A program made the translations under genes and the position numbers. This document shows positions 1-6,036 of a stretch of 6,036 nucleotides of DNA, in pieces. The DNA is from a virus: the IMG/VR virus record IMGVR_UViG_3300020041_000028, positions 1 through 6,036 of that record. One strand, given 5' to 3'. The first letter of the stretch is position 1. The number at the start of each line of letters is the position of its first letter. Under the pieces are notes generated by a model, which saw only the letters and a list, made by a program, of their open reading frames with translations, ran no database searches and was not told where the DNA came from.

Positions 1-121
1 CGAGCCGTTAAGAGCGCGGCGAGTAAGTGTTTCCGGAGCCGATGATATCGCGGACGCGAGATCGAGGCCCTGAAACAGCGCAGCCCGCTTAGGCTCGTGT
101 TGCATAAAATATTTTTTAGCC
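1..121. repeat. Terminal redundancy, copy 1. Identical to 5916-6036, the overlap of a circular contig.
   Basis: Read base by base: 'cgagccgttaagagcgcggcgagtaagtg...gcataaaatattttttagcc' occurs at both ends in direct orientation with no mismatches over 121 nt. Confidence 0.95.
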
Positions 122-322
122 ATGGATTATTTTGATTTTAGACCTAGGTTCTCACCGATTGTTGATTGCATTCCCTACCGTTTTTCCGTTGGTGCATATC
201 GTGGCAAAAGACGCGTTGTTATTGCCTGGTTTTCCGATGAGCAGCCCGCAAGCGACTATCTCATCCGCTGCCGTCGTGATCATCCTCGTGTTAAGTTTGA
301 TTGTCTACAAAGCCTGTTGTAA
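122..322 (+). CDS. Hypothetical 66-aa protein, mildly basic, translationally coupled to Rep
   Basis: ATG start. Its TAA stop (320-322) shares one base with the Rep ATG (322-324), giving TAATG. Third codon positions are T-rich (gat, ttt, cgt, gtt), like the confident genes. I recognise no family. Confidence 0.5.
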   Translation: MDYFDFRPRFSPIVDCIPYRFSVGAYRGKRRVVIAWFSDEQPASDYLIRCRRDHPRVKFDCLQSLL

Positions 323-1392
323 TGCCTTGTTCGTCGCCTATATGGATACGCAATCGTCGTTATTTCGACAAGAAGAATCCCTGTCGCAATGGTTCTGATG
401 TCGCTAAGTCTGCCCTGGCTCTCCGTCCCTGGGACGTTGCTCGCCAGTGGCTTATGGTTCCTTGTGGAAAGTGCGAAGATTGCCTGCGTCGTCAGCGTAA
501 CGATTGGTTCGTCAGGCTCGAGCGTGAACTTGCTCGTTGTAAGGCTGATAGCCAGCAGGCTATTTTTATTACAATAACGATTGCCCCGAAGTATTACAAC
601 GAAGCCTTGCTTGATCCGTCTTGGTTTATTCGAAAATTCAATGAACGCCTACGTCACAAGCTCGGTCATTCGTTTAAACATGCTTTTTTCCAAGAGTTTG
701 GCACTCATCCAGAAACAGGAAACGAGCCTCGATTGCATTTTCACGGTTTTTTATTTGGCACAAACGTTCTTTATAACACAATTCGCTCTGCTGTTCGAGA
801 CCTCGGTTTCGTGTGGCTAGCGAAGGCGACTCACAAGCGCGCTCGTTACTGCGTTAAGTATGTTACTAAGCAAATTGAATTTAACCCCGATGAAATTTCG
901 GATAAATATGTTACTGTAGATGGAAACCTTACGCCTTTATCTTGCCTCCTCCAACATCGCCGTTATACGCGAAAATTCGTGTCTGCTGGCGTTGGTGATT
1001 TTCTTGGTTATATGCCTCGCCCTTCTTCTCGTGTTTCGTCGTGGTCTTATTTCGATTTTGAGAAGCGCGTCAATTATAACTACTCGATTCCTAGGTATTA
1101 CCTTAGATACCTTAAACCGGAAGACGACGTTATTCGCTCGATTACCGCTGCTGATGCTTATTCACGTTTTAGCAAGTCTTCTCTGGTTAAGCGTATTGTG
1201 TCTCTGTGTGTTGAGCGGTTCAATCTCGATTCCTCCGTATCCCGTAGAGCGTCTTATACATGGGAGCAAAAGCAAATAATGCGCTTTTCTACCTCCTCTC
1301 GTAAAATGCCCGATTTTGATCCCCCAACGTGGCTGGATTTGGATATTCTTCAGTTTTGGAGAGACCACTATAAACTTCAATTAAACACTTAA
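322..1392 (+). CDS. Microviridae rolling-circle replication initiation protein (VP4 / phiX174 A-like HUH endonuclease), 356 aa from the ATG at 322
   Basis: N-terminus MPCSSPI and a CGKCEDC cysteine cluster. RCR motif 1 'FITITI' (565-582), HUH motif 'HFH' in LHFHGFLFG (736-744), and double-tyrosine motif 'YCVKYVTK' (from 847), comparable to phiX174 A 'YVAKYVNK'. The ORF track starts at a TTG at 301; the in-frame ATG at 322 is preferred. Confidence 0.93.
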   Translation: MPCSSPIWIRNRRYFDKKNPCRNGSDVAKSALALRPWDVARQWLMVPCGKCEDCLRRQRNDWFVRLERELARCKADSQQAIFITITIAPKYYNEALLDPSWFIRKFNERLRHKLGHSFKHAFFQEFGTHPETGNEPRLHFHGFLFGTNVLYNTIRSAVRDLGFVWLAKATHKRARYCVKYVTKQIEFNPDEISDKYVTVDGNLTPLSCLLQHRRYTRKFVSAGVGDFLGYMPRPSSRVSSWSYFDFEKRVNYNYSIPRYYLRYLKPEDDVIRSITAADAYSRFSKSSLVKRIVSLCVERFNLDSSVSRRASYTWEQKQIMRFSTSSRKMPDFDPPTWLDLDILQFWRDHYKLQLNT

Positions 1393-1395
1393 TTT

Positions 1396-3186
1396 ATGGG
1401 AAAACAACCTTTTATTTCGCATGCCGTAAATGGCTATTCTCGATACGATGTTCCCGAGAGTAAGGCGTTTACGTGTACACCGGGTATTTTGTATCCGGTG
1501 CGGGTCGATTTTATCAACGCTCGCGATCGCGTATCTATTGAGCAAGGTATCGACGTTCGTAGTAATCCGCTCGCCGTTCCGACGTTCAATCCCTACACTA
1601 TTCGTTTGCATCGTTTTTGGGTGCCTCTTCAGCTGTACCACCCTGAGATGAGAACGAATAGTAGTAAGTTCGATATGAATAGTTTGAGCTTGAATTTCGT
1701 TGCCGCTTCGTCAACCGGCTCTTACGAATTCACCTACAACAACTACCCCTATTCCAATTCGTTGCTTCGCTGGTTACGCATTATTCCCGCTTCTATTCCG
1801 TCGACAACCTCTTCTAACACTCCCATGTCGGCGAACCTTTCGGCTGCTCAACTAGAATATCCCTTAGGCTGGTGTACCGCCGATTCCTATCTCGCTTACT
1901 GGGATATTGTTCGCAATTACTATGGCTATTCCCAGTGGGGTCTCTACTCTTTCGCTTGGCCCAGCAGCTGGTGGTTCATTCCTAATAGCACTGGTGCTGC
2001 GTATAATGTTGCTCAATTCAGCGACGTGTCGAGGTTTTTCTCGCAAAGGATCGGAAACCTCGAATTTCTCGATGCTTATTATGAGAGCCAATTTTACCCT
2101 TCAGCTGTGCCGTCGTCGAATAATACGTATAATAGAGGAAATCTTTTTTCTCAGATATTACTCTCAGACCTTGGCGCTACAATTACTGCTTCCAAGGACG
2201 GTTACCCTGTCTCTACTATTTATCCTGGAAGTACCTCGCTAACCACCGCAGGCCCCGCGAATCAGCTTGCCACCACCCCTGGTACTACAACCGTCACTAC
2301 GCTGGGAGCGTTTCTCGTTTCTCATCCGATGGCTGTTGTACCTTCAAACCCTGATCGTTATAGCCGCCTGCTCCCTATCGGTAGCTCTGAAGGTGTTTCT
2401 ATGTCTGGTGTTTCAACTATACCACAGTTGGCTATTGCTTCGCGGCTTCAAGAGTACAAGGATTTGCTTGGCGCTGGTGGTTCTCGTTATAGCGATTGGT
2501 TGGAGACCTTTTTTGCGTCAAAGATTGAGCACGTTGATAGGCCCAAGCTGCTTTTTAGCGCTTCACAGACTGTCAATGTGCAGGTGGTTATGAATCAGGC
2601 TGGCAATGGTAATTTTGAAACCACTGAAGGTTTTCCGCCCCTTGGCCAGCAGGGTGGCGCCATCGCCTTCAACGAGCGCTTGGGTCGTCGACAATCTTAT
2701 TACTTTCGCGAACCCGGTTATCTAATTGATATGCTGAGTATTCGCCCCGTCTACTACTGGGCAGGCATCTATCCTGATTACCTCCATTACACTGGTGCTG
2801 ATTATTTTAATCCGATCTATAACGATATTGGATATCAGGATGTTCCTGGGTTCCAATTTGGTTTCGGAACTACCTCGGCCTCGGAAACCGTGGCTTACGA
2901 ACCGTGCTTCAACGAGTTTCGATCCTCGTATGACGAGGTTCTTGGTCAGCTGTCTCGATTCCAAGGCACTGCTACCAGCGTACCCCTTTATTCTTATTGG
3001 GTCCAACAGCGTGTTTTGTCTGCGAGCTATAACCAGTATTACTCCCTTCTGTTTGTGGATATTGATCAGGTAAACTCCCCGTTTTCTTCTAAGACGGAAG
3101 ATAACTTTTTCGTCAACCTTTCGTATTCTGTTCAGAAGAAGAATTTGGTTAATAAAACGTTCGCGACTCGTTTGTCTAATCGTTAA
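1396..3186 (+). CDS. Microviridae major capsid protein (VP1 / F-like), 595 aa
   Basis: Largest ORF, starting 3 nt after the Rep stop. N-terminal 'PGILYPV...NPLAVPTFNPYTIRLHRFWVPLQLY' and the central block 'LQEYKDLLGAGGSRYSDWLETFF...DRPKLL' (GGSRY at 2476-2490) match capsid signatures I recall for non-phiX microviruses. 'GYLIDMLSIRPVYYW' also fits. Confidence 0.95.
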   Translation: MGKQPFISHAVNGYSRYDVPESKAFTCTPGILYPVRVDFINARDRVSIEQGIDVRSNPLAVPTFNPYTIRLHRFWVPLQLYHPEMRTNSSKFDMNSLSLNFVAASSTGSYEFTYNNYPYSNSLLRWLRIIPASIPSTTSSNTPMSANLSAAQLEYPLGWCTADSYLAYWDIVRNYYGYSQWGLYSFAWPSSWWFIPNSTGAAYNVAQFSDVSRFFSQRIGNLEFLDAYYESQFYPSAVPSSNNTYNRGNLFSQILLSDLGATITASKDGYPVSTIYPGSTSLTTAGPANQLATTPGTTTVTTLGAFLVSHPMAVVPSNPDRYSRLLPIGSSEGVSMSGVSTIPQLAIASRLQEYKDLLGAGGSRYSDWLETFFASKIEHVDRPKLLFSASQTVNVQVVMNQAGNGNFETTEGFPPLGQQGGAIAFNERLGRRQSYYFREPGYLIDMLSIRPVYYWAGIYPDYLHYTGADYFNPIYNDIGYQDVPGFQFGFGTTSASETVAYEPCFNEFRSSYDEVLGQLSRFQGTATSVPLYSYWVQQRVLSASYNQYYSLLFVDIDQVNSPFSSKTEDNFFVNLSYSVQKKNLVNKTFATRLSNR

Positions 3187-3198
3187 TATATTGATCTT

Positions 3199-3495
3199 AT
3201 GGCACTTGATTGGTTACTTGAAGACGCTCCTGCTTATGTATCCCGCGGTCGGCGAATTATGTCTGTCCTCGACGGCTCTGGTTCTGTCGATGTTTTGCCT
3301 GGTCGCCCGGACGTGGTGGCCGAACCCTCTGACTTTGAGAAAGGAGAGAGGTTTAACCCTGATATTGATTTCGACCCTAACTCCTTTTCCCGTATGGATA
3401 AGTTTGATGGTCTCGAGGTTGGTCAGGAACTCATTGATTCAGAGCTAGATAGGTCAAAGTCTGCCTCTAAACCTACTAACCCTGAAGAAAAATAG
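3199..3495 (+). CDS. Hypothetical highly acidic 98-aa protein. Its position and charge are compatible with a scaffolding-type protein, but this is unproven.
   Basis: ATG start 12 nt after the capsid stop. 22 Asp/Glu against 12 Arg/Lys by direct count. T-rich third codon positions, as in the capsid and Rep genes. I recognise no family motif. Confidence 0.65.
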   Translation: MALDWLLEDAPAYVSRGRRIMSVLDGSGSVDVLPGRPDVVAEPSDFEKGERFNPDIDFDPNSFSRMDKFDGLEVGQELIDSELDRSKSASKPTNPEEK

Positions 3496-3499
3496 TATA

Positions 3500-3512
3500 T
3501 TCTTTACTTGAA
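3500..3512 (+). repeat. 13-nt direct repeat TTCTTTACTTGAA, copy 1
   Basis: Exact match to 3610-3622. It lies in non-coding DNA just after the stop of the 3199-3495 ORF, in the loop between the short AT-rich inverted repeats 'tagtatat' (3493-3500) and 'atatatgcta' (3514-3523). Confidence 0.9.
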
Positions 3513-3517
3513 GATAT

Positions 3518-3628
3518 ATGCTACGTGCGCGGACCCCTTCCGAAAGAGTTCGTGAATTTCTGAAGGTTATTGGTAACGAGTGCGGGAGAGGCCGCGCATT
3601 TTTCTATCGTTCTTTACTTGAATTTTAA
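3518..3628 (+). CDS. Possible 36-aa basic peptide (MLRARTPSERVREFLKVIGNECGRGRAFFYRSLLEF), a candidate J/VP5-like DNA-binding protein. Speculative.
   Basis: Hand-translated ATG-to-TAA ORF, below the ORF-track length cutoff. 8 Arg/Lys against 4 Glu. The ATG lies 5 nt after repeat copy 1. Microviruses are known to encode very small basic packaging proteins. The ORF is short and overlaps a terminator-like hairpin, so confidence is low. Confidence 0.25.
   Translation: MLRARTPSERVREFLKVIGNECGRGRAFFYRSLLEF
3580..3603 (+). terminator. Candidate weak intrinsic terminator: GTGCGG / gagagg loop / CCGCGC, then A-TTTTT
   Basis: A 6-bp GC-rich stem (3580-3585 pairing with 3592-3597, one G-T/G-U pair), a 6-nt loop, and a T5 run at 3599-3603. 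It sits in the spacer upstream of the lipoprotein gene. Confidence 0.3.
3610..3622 (+). repeat. 13-nt direct repeat TTCTTTACTTGAA, copy 2
   Basis: Exact match to 3500-3512. It ends 10 nt upstream of the ATG at 3633. Confidence 0.9.
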
Positions 3629-3632
3629 TATC

Positions 3633-3824
3633 ATGTCAGACACTAAACAACCTTTCTATAAATCAAAGGCTTTTTGGACGCTTGTTTCGTCTATTATTGC
3701 CGCGTTAGCTGCCTTTTTCCTCTCTTCTTGTTCGGCTCAGGCTAAAATGCAGCGTAGTGGCGTTCACATCGACACAGTTCGTGTTGATTACATCATTCGT
3801 TCTAACAACTTAACCCACGTATAG
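3633..3824 (+). CDS. Small prelipoprotein, 63-aa precursor with a predicted 31-aa mature lipopeptide. Candidate lysis or superinfection-exclusion protein.
   Basis: The sequence begins MSDTKQPFYKSK (positively charged n-region). AFWTLVSSIIAALAAFF follows as the hydrophobic core, then the lipobox L-S-S-C with Cys33 (tgt at 3729-3731). The stop is 1 nt before the VP2 ATG. The ORF track starts at a TTG at 3570; the ATG at 3633 gives a canonical signal-peptide length. Confidence 0.65.
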   Translation: MSDTKQPFYKSKAFWTLVSSIIAALAAFFLSSCSAQAKMQRSGVHIDTVRVDYIIRSNNLTHV

Positions 3825-3825
3825 T

Positions 3826-5082
3826 ATGTCCGCTCCTGCTGCTGCCGCCGTATCCTTTGGCCAGGCCCTTGGTCAGTCGGCCGCATCTACCGGTACTACC
3901 GGTCTAATCACCGGCGCTCTTGGTCAACTTTTTGGCGGCATGAACGCTCGCCGCCAGTGGAAATTTCAGCAAAAGCAAATGGCTCTTCAGCAGAAGTACG
4001 CTTTAGAGCAAATGCAAAAACAATCCGAGTTGTCCTATGCTAATTGGCAGAAACAGTTTGATTACGAGAATGCATACAATGACCCTACGAAGGTTTTTGA
4101 TCGCTACTTGAAGGCCGGCGTAACGCCTGCTGCCGTTTTAGGTTCCTCCGGCGTTGGCGTAAACGCCACCATGTCAGGCGGTTCTGCATCTATGCCCTCT
4201 GCTTCCGGACCTTCAGGTGGTCCTCCGATCGCTCCCGGCGGTTTCACCCCTGCTGATCCTACCTCTATCGCTCAAAATATGATGGCGCAGTCTACGATTG
4301 ACCGTAATGCCGCTGCCGCTAATCGAGATGATGCAGAGGCCGCTAATCTTCGAGGTAACACTCATACGCAAGAGTGGCGAGAACGGATGGATAAATTTGA
4401 GCTGCAGATCGCCGAGCACCACGTTAAGGATGCCCGCGAGCTCGCTAATCTTCGTGAAGCGCAGGCTCAGATCGTTGCAATCGACGCTTACTTGTCCAAT
4501 ATCACACAAGGTTATAAGATGTCTTCTATTATGGCCATGGCTGGCATCCTGGATGAAAAGTACCAGAATCTCCGTAAAACTAATGATTGGTTCGAACCCG
4601 AAGCTGGCGCTGCGCTTGCAGTCGCTTGGTCCTCGGCCGTTGCCAATGTTGCCGCCGCCGCTGAGTCTGAATCCAGGACTAAGCTTAACTATCAAGAACT
4701 CAAGGATTTGCAGAATTGGTTCGAGCTCAACTGGGAGAAGGAAGTTCCTGTTCAGATTCGTAACGATAAAGGTGAGGTTGTCGAGGTGAAGACGATGAAA
4801 GTTGCTGAAACTACGTCTATCCTAAAGACTGCTGCCGCTGAGGCTGCTCAGCTTGAAGTAGGTAATACTCGTTGGGATTTGCGTAATTCCAGACTTCGTC
4901 TTGCTCATGACATTGTTCGTTCCTTCGCTACTGCTGCAGGTGCCGCCGGCGCTGCATACGCTGGTCGCAAGGCCGCAGGCCCTACCGGCCCACAAGGTTA
5001 CGAAGAAGTGAAGGAAATCTACAGCCCCTACGGTGACAAAAACGGTAGCATTTATACCCGTCGTAGTTATTCTGGGAAATAA
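3826..5082 (+). CDS. Microviridae minor capsid / DNA pilot protein (VP2 / H-like), 418 aa
   Basis: Second-largest ORF. Gly/Ala-rich hydrophobic N-terminus. Gln/Lys-rich region followed by 'NAYNDPTKVFDRYLKAGVTPAAVLG' (4081-4143), which resembles the '...AGLNP..L.G' block I recall in microvirus VP2 proteins. Long Ala/Glu-rich, probably helical centre and a Gly/Ala-rich C-terminus. Confidence 0.78.
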   Translation: MSAPAAAAVSFGQALGQSAASTGTTGLITGALGQLFGGMNARRQWKFQQKQMALQQKYALEQMQKQSELSYANWQKQFDYENAYNDPTKVFDRYLKAGVTPAAVLGSSGVGVNATMSGGSASMPSASGPSGGPPIAPGGFTPADPTSIAQNMMAQSTIDRNAAAANRDDAEAANLRGNTHTQEWRERMDKFELQIAEHHVKDARELANLREAQAQIVAIDAYLSNITQGYKMSSIMAMAGILDEKYQNLRKTNDWFEPEAGAALAVAWSSAVANVAAAAESESRTKLNYQELKDLQNWFELNWEKEVPVQIRNDKGEVVEVKTMKVAETTSILKTAAAEAAQLEVGNTRWDLRNSRLRLAHDIVRSFATAAGAAGAAYAGRKAAGPTGPQGYEEVKEIYSPYGDKNGSIYTRRSYSGK

Positions 5083-5108
5083 TGAACAATCTCTCCGACT
5101 TTTTGAAC

Positions 5109-5139
5109 TTTGTTACTCGTTCTTTTTGCCGTATATTTG
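5109..5139 (+). promoter_or_regulatory. Candidate Bacteroides-type promoter: TTTG (5109-5112), 19 nt, then TATATTTG (5132-5139)
   Basis: Matches the published Bacteroides consensus of a -33 TTTG and a -7 TAnnTTTG at about the expected spacing. It lies in the 83-nt VP2/ORF5166 intergenic region, 27 nt before the ATG at 5166. Confidence 0.3.
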
Positions 5140-5165
5140 TATCGTAAACCAATAACCATACTACC

Positions 5166-5486
5166 ATGAAAAAGTCTAGCAAAAGTGTTAGAACCAACGA
5201 GTTGATGATCGACGTTGTAGAGTACGCATTCACCGAGTGGCTCGTTCGTCGAGGAATATTTTCCGCATTTAAGGCGAATTACGAGCACGCTTTCGCGCCC
5301 TACAAGAGTTTTCGCGATCGACTGCGTTCTCATATTCGACACTCTCTTCACGGTTTCGGTTTCGGCCCAAGCCACCTCGTTTCCTCCGCGTTCCTGTTTA
5401 CTTCGACACCCGAAGGTCCTAAGTTTTGGGGCAAGCAGTCTGCCGCTTGGGAGCGTTTTTGTTCTGAATTTCAAGTAAAACTTTAA
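5166..5486 (+). CDS. Hypothetical 106-aa protein (ORFan to my eye)
   Basis: ATG start (MKKSSKS...) preceded by the promoter-like motif. The sequence looks protein-like, with amphipathic stretches and 'TPEGPKFWGKQSAAWERF'. I can name no family. Confidence 0.6.
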   Translation: MKKSSKSVRTNELMIDVVEYAFTEWLVRRGIFSAFKANYEHAFAPYKSFRDRLRSHIRHSLHGFGFGPSHLVSSAFLFTSTPEGPKFWGKQSAAWERFCSEFQVKL

Positions 5487-5497
5487 ATCACATTATT

Positions 5498-5821
5498 ATG
5501 ACACAGATTCATGTTGTCGTCCGGCGAGTTAGTCCGGCTCTCAAGGTTGATCTCGCCCAGATAGGTCGTTTCAAAGATGGTCAGTTTGACCCGCTCCCTC
5601 TCGGCGCTGTTGCGAACACTCCTATTGCCCGTTTCTTGGAGAATTCGGATATCAGCGACTCGCTCTACGTCAACCACTCGAAAATAGCGGACCTCATTGC
5701 CGCCTGTGAAGAGCTTCCTGGCTTCGGCATCGAGTTTTTCGACAATACGTTGGTTCTCATGTTTGACTTTAATCTCAACTACGATGAAGGCGCGACGAAA
5801 GAAGAAGGGAAAGGGCACTAA
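5498..5821 (+). CDS. Hypothetical 107-aa acidic protein (ORFan to my eye)
   Basis: ATG start 11 nt after the previous stop. About 38% G at first codon positions (41 of 107, hand count). The antisense frame is also open, so the strand assignment rests on the ATG start and co-orientation with the other genes. Confidence 0.55.
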   Translation: MTQIHVVVRRVSPALKVDLAQIGRFKDGQFDPLPLGAVANTPIARFLENSDISDSLYVNHSKIADLIAACEELPGFGIEFFDNTLVLMFDFNLNYDEGATKEEGKGH

Positions 5822-5864
5822 AGTTGTGACCCGCCCGCTTGGTGGAAGAGTTCTTTAACACTGC

Positions 5865-5896
5865 GAACCTGTGGGAGACTCTTCTCCTGCAGGTTC
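5865..5896 (+). other. Strong 32-nt stem-loop, GAACCTGTGGGAGA-ctct-TCTCCTGCAGGTTC. Candidate end-of-operon terminator or ssDNA replication/packaging hairpin.
   Basis: Hand-paired: 5865-5878 pairs with 5883-5896, giving 12 Watson-Crick pairs plus 2 adjacent G-T (G-U in RNA) wobbles and a 4-nt loop. It starts 44 nt after the last + strand stop codon, inside the main non-coding region. Confidence 0.5.
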
Positions 5897-5915
5897 CTTC
5901 TCTACTATATATCCT

Positions 5916-6036
5916 CGAGCCGTTAAGAGCGCGGCGAGTAAGTGTTTCCGGAGCCGATGATATCGCGGACGCGAGATCGAGGCCCTGAAACAGCGCAGCC
6001 CGCTTAGGCTCGTGTTGCATAAAATATTTTTTAGCC
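5916..6036. repeat. Terminal redundancy, copy 2. Identical to 1-121.
   Basis: Same 121-nt string as at the start of the window. Confidence 0.95.

Follow-up and report, generated by a model that had tools for sequence, protein, structure and literature searches.

We analyzed a 6,036-nucleotide (nt) stretch of viral DNA, positions 1 to 6,036 of IMG/VR record IMGVR_UViG_3300020041_000028 (hereafter, the window), which is essentially a complete microvirus genome. Our subject is a small gene at 3633-3824 on the plus strand, with 63 codons followed by a TAG stop codon (ATG at 3633, TAG at 3822-3824) and the translation MSDTKQPFYKSKAFWTLVSSIIAALAAFFLSSCSAQAKMQRSGVHIDTVRVDYIIRSNNLTHV. The gene is preceded by the replication initiator gene VP4 (322-1392; PF23343, phrog_942), the major capsid protein (MCP) gene VP1 (1396-3186; PF02305, phrog_514), an acidic 98-amino-acid (aa) open reading frame (ORF), here called ORF98 (3199-3495), and a 137-nt spacer (3496-3632). 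It is followed by the gene for the DNA pilot protein VP2 (3826-5082, +; PHROG 8689/31272), whose relatives are annotated as VP2 or DNA pilot protein. Several small ORFs are also present. A sequence-only reading of this DNA had placed a stand-alone prelipoprotein gene of 63 aa at 3633-3824, with the capsid module on one side and the pilot-protein gene on the other, and had named it the best candidate in the genome for lysis or superinfection exclusion. The position and translation are exactly as it gave them, and the gene proved to be genuine and strongly constrained; the proposed function is weighed below.

The prelipoprotein gene and its product

We compared the gene with its counterparts in related genomes. 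It had been suggested that relatives be searched for a lipobox ORF at the same position; the ORF is intact in all 94 related loci, and no relative has a disrupted copy. The pooled ratio of nonsynonymous to synonymous substitution (dN/dS; NG86) was 0.072 in the frame of the gene, compared with 2.3 and 2.6 in the other two frames, with synonymous sites near saturation (pS, 0.64). Variability at the three codon positions was 0.084/0.047/0.362, such that the third position varies 4 to 8 times as much as the others. Synonymous diversity within the gene was normal (0.45 to 0.53), and hence no gene overlaps 3633-3824. Among 5.8 billion proteins searched, two subtypes of the protein had 386 and 135 homologues, nearly all of them unnamed, and IMG/VR contained 221 loci. 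Alternative-frame ORFs in T-rich genomes of this kind are often hydrophobic and sometimes match a lipobox falsely, as did extra ORFs in relatives L095 and L106, which would be the grounds for regarding 3633-3824 as a chance ORF with a fortuitous lipobox. The number of homologues, the third-position variability, and above all the intactness and dN/dS data stand against that explanation; the last two already refute it, and the chance that it is correct is vanishingly small. We conclude that 3633-3824 is a real protein-coding gene that is under strong purifying selection and is a core gene of its subclade.

We assign the start codon to the ATG at 3633. Met1 is invariant, whereas the open sequence upstream of it varies in frame and length among relatives; we therefore rejected a start at an upstream TTG (3570). 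We also rejected a 36-aa ORF at 3518-3628 (MLRARTP...; ORF36), or the 100-aa form annotated in relatives, as the true N terminus, because this region has no codon periodicity (0.071/0.073/0.087), has a variable frame, and shows covariation of the kind expected of RNA or DNA structure. The annotated 100-aa versions occur only in relatives whose upstream spacer happens to be in frame.

The product has the layout of a bacterial prelipoprotein. A predicted signal peptide of residues 1 to 32 (3633..3728, +) consists of an n-region, MSDTKQPFYKSK, and an h-region, FWTLVSSIIAALAAFF. The n-region is basic, with a net charge of +2 and lysines at positions 5, 10, and 12, and includes a Lys or Arg within the first 7 residues. 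Twenty uncharged residues lie between K12 and C33, giving a hydrophobic core of about 17 residues ahead of the lipobox (17 to 20 residues in all). The lipobox, L30-S31-S32-C33 (3720..3731, +), has the form [LVI][ASTVI][GAS]C and matches both the PROSITE rule PS51257 and the DOLOP pattern, with Cys33 inside the permitted range of positions 15 to 35. Cleavage before Cys33 would leave a mature lipopeptide of 31 aa, CSAQAKMQRSGVHIDTVRVDYIIRSNNLTHV (3729..3821, +), that has no acidic residues at +2 to +5, no Pro, and no Cys other than the predicted lipid acceptor; a second Cys (GVHCDTV) is found in only some homologues. The core of the mature part in the window and its closest homologues (type A; see below) is the motif G43-V-H-I-D-T-V-R-V-D-Y53 (3759..3791, +), whose D47 is at least 90% conserved in all mature types. 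The charged n-region, the LSSC lipobox with Cys33, and the mature part of about 31 residues described in the sequence-only reading are borne out.

The predicted cleavage site is conserved across the family. PS51257 holds in 12 of 13 diverse homologues, and position -1 is Ser, Ala, or Gly in all 13, which were aligned without that constraint. Among cluster representatives, 52 of 59 fit PS51257; the residues at position -1 in this set are forced by the search pattern. The lipobox variants at the 94 loci are LSSC (62 loci), LASC (18 loci), LTSC (4 loci), and others. Our assignment of signal peptidase II (SPase II) processing rests on the PROSITE rule together with the family-wide invariance of Cys with Ser, Ala, or Gly at -1. 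The product has the full anatomy of an SPase II substrate.

The signal-peptide half is under stronger constraint than the mature half (dN/dS, 0.052 versus 0.095), and K12, W15, T16, and A24 each reach at least 90% conservation when all the family types are compared. Two AlphaFold2 runs gave a helix over residues 12 to 33 with a predicted local distance difference test (pLDDT) score of about 90, whereas the mature part scored below 62. A lipoprotein signal peptide that is more conserved than the peptide it exports is an unusual pattern, of interest in its own right. It is also an argument for a different kind of product, namely, an uncleaved, signal-anchored (type II) membrane protein whose conserved transmembrane (TM) helix is the effector, a "protein antibiotic" like E of phiX174 or LysM of leviviruses, and whose Cys is kept for a reason unrelated to lipidation. 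Constraint is strongest in the hydrophobic segment, where F14, W15, T16, and A24 are invariant or nearly so and a small-xxx-small pattern is present. Moreover, some type-B members and relative L012 have LESC, with Glu at -2, which breaks the PROSITE rule and thus counts against SPase II processing as well as in favor of an uncleaved anchor. Opposed to the uncleaved form are hydrophobic segments unrelated to that of the window (P0287, P0294, P0297, P0301, L107, and mar36), which keep [S/A/G]-C exactly at their ends, along with the fit to PS51257 and the residues at -1 given above; in addition, the gene stands alone and is not overprinted. We consider an uncleaved anchor very improbable, and we identify 3633-3824 as a conserved prelipoprotein gene with high confidence.

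A microviral family with divergent mature peptides

A profile search of 1.84 billion cluster representatives yielded 67 matches, of which all but two, chance matches to repetitive proteins, appear to be microviral. Profile searches of Pfam, PHROG, NCBIfam, PADLOC, and PDB sequences found no relatives above noise; the only weak matches, all below threshold, were to lipoprotein signal regions (YgdI/YgdR and MBA). A single nr entry carries the label "MAG TPA: lipoprotein [Microviridae sp.]," and this automatic label is the sole trace of the subject, as we found no paper on lipoproteins in Microviridae. Judged from these searches, the family is restricted to microviruses.

The family contains discrete types of mature peptide. 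Type-B genomes, which have the conserved spacer, at first appeared to be without the gene; this was rejected, since in its place they encode a 65-aa homologue that shares the signal peptide (KSKKFWTLV.AIVAALAAFFLESC) and differs in the mature peptide, TARHYVVQSASSIKSGDTTRTTITYEQIGNFKRP. More mature types exist, and the type-A and type-B mature peptides also occur behind unrelated hydrophobic leaders. Signal-peptide types and mature types are therefore found in varied combinations, and the junction is always [S/A/G]-C. Ala24 and the Cys at the junction are the sole residues that never vary in the family. Among stand-alone members, the mature part is 27 to 38 aa long. A G-D-[T/S] turn is common to the divergent mature types, which are probably divergent homologues built on this turn. 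Because [S/A/G]-Cys persists at the end of the hydrophobic segment while all else changes, we take the Cys to be the site of lipidation and cleavage; this persistence fits the predicted SPase II site and is the strongest argument available for lipidation.

Two further sets of sequences resemble parts of the protein. About 25 cluster representatives (P0246-P0281) are ORFs of 172 to 223 aa in which the lipoprotein module is followed by an unconserved stretch of about 130 aa rich in Ser, Leu, Thr, and Pro and by a basic tail, ...RRGGRRKGRPRPKIKTIPLGGSHL, like that of the phiX174 J protein. One such ORF, in L095 (1512-2114), shares its DNA with a 133-aa ORF of another frame that looks more like a protein, and several of the basic tails have no Met nearby. 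These long ORFs are probably gene-caller read-through, with NNY codon bias holding the +1 frame open. The second case is P0292, a 950-aa metagenomic repeat protein with units that end in ...TG[LV]H[ST]DT[VI]Q[VIL]DYNDG and match GVHIDTVRVDY weakly (E = 1.4e-5; 6 stretches). The match suggests that the motif forms a beta-strand-turn-strand, and the likeness is probably convergence rather than homology.

The gene is closely linked to VP2 in most genomes. At the junction TAG-T-ATG (3822..3828, +), its stop codon lies 1 nt before the ATG of VP2, and the same gap is found in 83 of 94 loci (TAGTATG in 59 and TAATATG in 21). Because of this spacing, we consider VP2 to be probably translationally coupled to the lipoprotein gene. 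In some lineages (L005, L007, L009, L012, and L095), the gene is elsewhere, among small ORFs between VP2 and VP4 or right after the capsid gene. A sister subclade (L103-L105; MCP about 40% identical) has no lipoprotein gene. The lipoprotein type follows the VP4/ORF98 backbone and not capsid similarity; the relative with the closest MCP (L098; 75% identity) carries a type-B lipoprotein. Likewise, types A and B are mixed among nearest capsid neighbors but not among VP4 and ORF98 neighbors.

One role that would suit this arrangement, distinct from lysis and exclusion, is an envelope function linked to VP2 or to the making of particles, such as organizing the membrane where particles assemble or DNA is delivered, or altering the formation of outer membrane vesicles. 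The conserved 1-nt coupling with VP2, the core-gene status and low dN/dS, the location of the module among small ORFs between VP2 and VP4 in some lineages, and the long ORFs that run in frame to a J-like basic tail are all consistent with it. Against it, the gene shifts position between lineages, and linkage to VP2 is thus not obligatory; the long ORFs have the composition of the +1 frame and are probably read-through; and there is no precedent in Microviridae. We regard such a role as improbable.

The upstream element, the host, and overprinted ORFs

The spacer upstream of the gene contains a conserved, structured noncoding element (3525..3607, +) with an outer stem (3525-3530/3594-3599), an inner hairpin (3533-3574), and then TTTTTCTAT. 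We found this element in 96 of 102 related loci, and the region 3484-3620 is far more conserved than the synonymous sites of neighboring genes. The inner hairpin is 97% paired across the 96 sequences, with 17 extra pair types and 105 double-change cells, compared with no more than 18 in slid controls. The outer stem is invariant and is followed by the T-run TTTTTCTAT in 91 of 96 loci; L105 has a compensated version of this stem. There is no codon periodicity across the element in the ORF36 frame. The window gave no match in Rfam. A local terminator hairpin at 3580-3597 was rejected, being only 67% paired across relatives and without covariation.

The element directly abuts the VP2 ATG in the sister subclade without the lipoprotein gene. 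It therefore follows the capsid/ORF98 module generally and is no device peculiar to the lipoprotein gene. Its possible functions include those of a terminator or attenuator, an mRNA stabilizer, and a complementary-strand origin. The sequence-only reading had suggested that a long, structured spacer could throttle expression of the gene. The structure is indeed conserved and covarying, which makes a role in limiting downstream expression plausible; the suggestion is weakened by the presence of the element where the lipoprotein gene is absent and by a fold energy in the window that is unexceptional (z = -1.45 as DNA and -0.13 as RNA). A 13-nt direct repeat, TTCTTTACTTGAA, flanks the element at 3500-3512 and 3610-3622. 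Each copy ends 5 to 10 nt before an ATG (3518 and 3633), and the second lies inside a block that is almost 100% conserved (3598-3620).

The nearest GenBank records to the window are unclassified Microviridae from feces of pig, rodent, lemur, tortoise, and human, and by capsid similarity, only 67 records of the phage collection belong to the clade. The clade is remote from the sole cultured Bacteroides microvirus, phiHBP1 (MCP 21% identical). None of nine ORF starts in the window has a Shine-Dalgarno-like motif within the 20 nt 5' of it, and the leaders are 53 to 83% A+T. Bacteroidetes do not use Shine-Dalgarno sequences (PMC3155529, PMC7797042). Since no gene in the window has such a motif, the host is probably a species of Bacteroidota. 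Conservation across about 100 related genomes is mosaic, with median protein identities of 88% for VP4, 86% for ORF98, and 89% for the lipoprotein (a figure biased upward, since the loci were picked by lipoprotein similarity) and lower medians for VP1 (69%), VP2 (54%), and ORF106 and ORF107 (51 to 59%).

We scanned synonymous diversity using 54 to 93 orthologues per gene. In VP4, it falls from about 0.5 to between 0.12 and 0.25 over 901-1260 and recovers at 1291. This trough matches an overprinted +1-frame ORF at 920-1279 (+), which encodes 119 aa (METLRLYLASS...PPYPVERLIHGSKSK) with two hydrophobic peaks (residues 21 to 39 and 80 to 98) and a basic C terminus. The ORF is open over its full length in 84 of 99 loci, with an ATG near the expected start in 92. 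It is kept even in genomes that are 32 to 43% identical in that frame, which share the motifs LASLLW and PPYPVE. Gene callers almost never report it (5 database matches). With its embedded architecture, like that of phiX174 E or K, it is a candidate membrane or lysis gene.

The scan contains its own positive control, a trough at 5753-5815 in ORF107 (5498-5821) that coincides with a 24-aa, very basic ORF, MKARRKKKGKGTKVVTRPLGGRVL (5784-5858, +), overlapping the end of ORF107. Synonymous diversity in ORF107 is 0.13 to 0.16 over the overlap, and the strict pattern of the basic tail is found in 50 of 108 loci. We take this ORF to recall the J DNA-packaging proteins of phiX174, G4, and alpha3, in which a basic stretch is followed by ..GGxxh at the C terminus.

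A candidate lysis or release factor compared with known systems

Colicin lysis proteins have mature parts of 28 to 33 aa, which the 27 to 38 aa of the family match. We tentatively propose, at somewhat less than even odds, that the lipoprotein is a lysis or release factor that disrupts the envelope in the manner of the colicin-release lipoproteins (bacteriocin release proteins [BRPs]). The precursor would be inserted N-in via Sec, Lgt would lipidate Cys33, and LspA would then cleave. This would leave a positively charged, beta-hairpin-prone lipopeptide of about 31 aa facing the periplasm and a 32-residue signal peptide that stays in the inner membrane. In Bacteroidota, the export signal of lipoproteins consists of acidic residues after the Cys; because no acidic residues follow Cys33, exposure of the lipopeptide at the cell surface is unlikely. 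Made late, together with VP2, and at a level lowered by the upstream element, the lipoprotein would accumulate as virions form. Both the small mature lipopeptide and a persistent signal peptide acting sequence specifically would damage the envelope, possibly jointly with the two-TM protein encoded at 920-1279. A stable, functional signal peptide is documented for the BRP and colicin A lysis proteins, according to PMC5727409 (its references 16 to 18).

We favor a lysis function because the mature part is tiny, the signal peptide is constrained, the gene is a core gene, and there is no other recognizable lysis gene; the tight stop/ATG coupling to VP2 and the terminator-like element upstream also speak for it. 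No window ORF has a muralytic or spanin domain in Pfam or PHROG, with no holin, endolysin, or i-spanin detected, and no M15 peptidase was found in about 100 related genomes. Some other microviruses carry an M15 peptidase, which has been suggested as the endolysin in some lineages (PMC3394797). In phiHBP1 (PV598014; L014), which has no lipoprotein homologue, a 134-aa ORF at 84-488 (-) looks M15-like by eye (SGYRS...H...D), an assignment made without a hidden Markov model test. This peptidase-like ORF agrees with the proposal of Roux et al. 2012 that such peptidases serve as endolysins.

Several observations weigh against a lysis function. In searches of Pfam, PHROG, NCBIfam, PADLOC, and PDB, nothing significant linked the lipoprotein to lysis proteins by homology. 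Members of the sister subclade (L103-L105) must also release their progeny, and they do so without the lipoprotein. Neither the lipoprotein alignment nor the MCP turned up a prophage or cellular homologue in pattern scans that covered one genome from each of 185,579 prokaryotic species. The beta-hairpin in the mature part (E37-41/E51-55), obtained from AlphaFold2 with a diverse alignment, is of low confidence (pLDDT, 56 to 61). The existence of discrete, divergent mature types fits host-specific binding, for example in exclusion, at least as well as lysis. Finally, the conserved ORF at 920-1279, with its matching synonymous trough, is no weaker a lysis candidate than the lipoprotein and is of a type with better precedent, which weakens the claim that the lipoprotein is the best in the genome; the two proteins could also act together.

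We also considered superinfection exclusion or receptor masking, as by the lipoproteins T5 Llp, Cor, and Rtp45. A periplasm-facing lipopeptide would bind an outer membrane receptor or the DNA-entry route and so keep related microviruses from adsorbing or delivering their DNA, and progeny would be protected from inactivation on cell debris. Small phage lipoproteins with such a role are well documented, and their genes adjoin that of the receptor-binding protein, as with Llp and pb5 (PMC9586334); Rtp45 and the debris-protection rationale are described in PMC12685063. Here, the lipoprotein gene abuts the pilot gene VP2 in 83 of 94 genomes, and in the one cultured Bacteroides microvirus, host-range escape maps to capsid and pilot proteins (PMC13064476). 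The several discrete mature types, each conserved internally, likewise suggest target-specific binding. On the other side, the mature peptide has only 31 aa and no second Cys in the window, whereas Llp is larger and has a Cys11-Cys58 disulfide (PMC9586334), and there is no homology to Llp or Cor. The lipoprotein type tracks the VP4/ORF98 backbone and not capsid similarity, and within type A the peptide remains 87 to 95% identical while VP1 and VP2 fall to medians of 69% and 54%, a comparison biased by the choice of loci by lipoprotein similarity. Exclusion would also leave the very strong constraint on the signal peptide unexplained. We regard it as rather unlikely.

In a broader form of the lysis proposal, this microvirus clade as a whole relies on the lipoprotein for lysis or release. 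The lipoprotein would then define a new class of single-gene lysis protein, in which a lipidated beta-hairpin of about 30 aa acts along with a sequence-specific signal peptide. Such a class would have evolved independently of the colicin-release proteins and would act in Bacteroidota-type envelopes, with the divergent mature types reflecting adaptation to different hosts. We consider this possible but doubtful. phiX174 is the sole microvirus with a lysis mechanism that has been worked out (PMC3394797), and the lipoprotein clade bears on how microviruses outside the phiX174 group leave the cell. Members of the clade abound in the gut viromes of animals and humans (the 221 IMG/VR loci and hundreds of protein clusters) and offer two concrete, easily synthesized lysis candidates, the 63-aa lipoprotein and the overprinted 119-aa membrane protein. 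Should lysis be its function, the lipoprotein would make the envelope fail in a new way, perhaps one peculiar to Bacteroidota, and could become a tool or an antibacterial lead. If its function is exclusion, it would be the first exclusion factor known in Microviridae and would point to the phage receptor.

Every sequence test places the lipoprotein outside the colicin-lysis, Llp/Cor, and spanin families, and its likeness to them is in kind only, all being small envelope lipoproteins that mobile elements encode. Like the colicin lysis proteins (BRP; PF02402), it is a very small prelipoprotein whose mature lipopeptide has about 30 aa and is rich in Ser, Thr, Gln, Val, Arg, and Asp, and both are encoded by stand-alone small genes that follow highly expressed genes. 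In both, the signal peptide itself appears to be important, being stable and functional in BRP (PMC5727409) and the most constrained part of the protein here. In contrast, there is no sequence similarity between them (no match in a Pfam scan at E <= 10 and only sub-threshold signal-region matches in NCBIfam). The lipoprotein gene lies in a microvirus genome of about 6 kb with Rep, MCP, and pilot genes, whereas BRP genes lie in SOS-regulated colicin plasmid operons; the host is probably one of the Bacteroidota rather than the Enterobacteriaceae; and the lipoprotein has several divergent mature types.

With T5 Llp, Cor (T1/phi80/N15), and Rtp45, the lipoprotein shares small size, a phage origin, and a predicted orientation toward the periplasm. 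In 83 of 94 loci, the gene lies beside one for host range or entry, VP2, much as Llp lies beside pb5, but in L005, L007, L009, L012, and L095 it lies elsewhere. It differs in having a mature part about half the size and without the intramolecular disulfide of Llp and Cor, and in a type that does not track capsid similarity; there was no match to Llp or Cor in Pfam, PHROG, or a profile search of PDB chains (the presence of Llp in the PDB set was not checked). The o-spanins (Rz1-like) are also small phage lipoproteins, with a possible outer membrane role in release shared by the lipoprotein. Unlike them, it occurs with no detected i-spanin, holin, or endolysin, its mature peptide has neither Pro nor extra Cys, and it is too short to span the periplasm. 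Like phiX174 E, the lipoprotein is a small, membrane-targeted microvirus protein with an N-terminal hydrophobic helix under sequence constraint. E is overprinted in gene D and has no lipobox, whereas the lipoprotein gene stands alone and encodes a lipobox that is conserved; in this genome, it is the candidate ORF at 920-1279 inside VP4 that is built like E.

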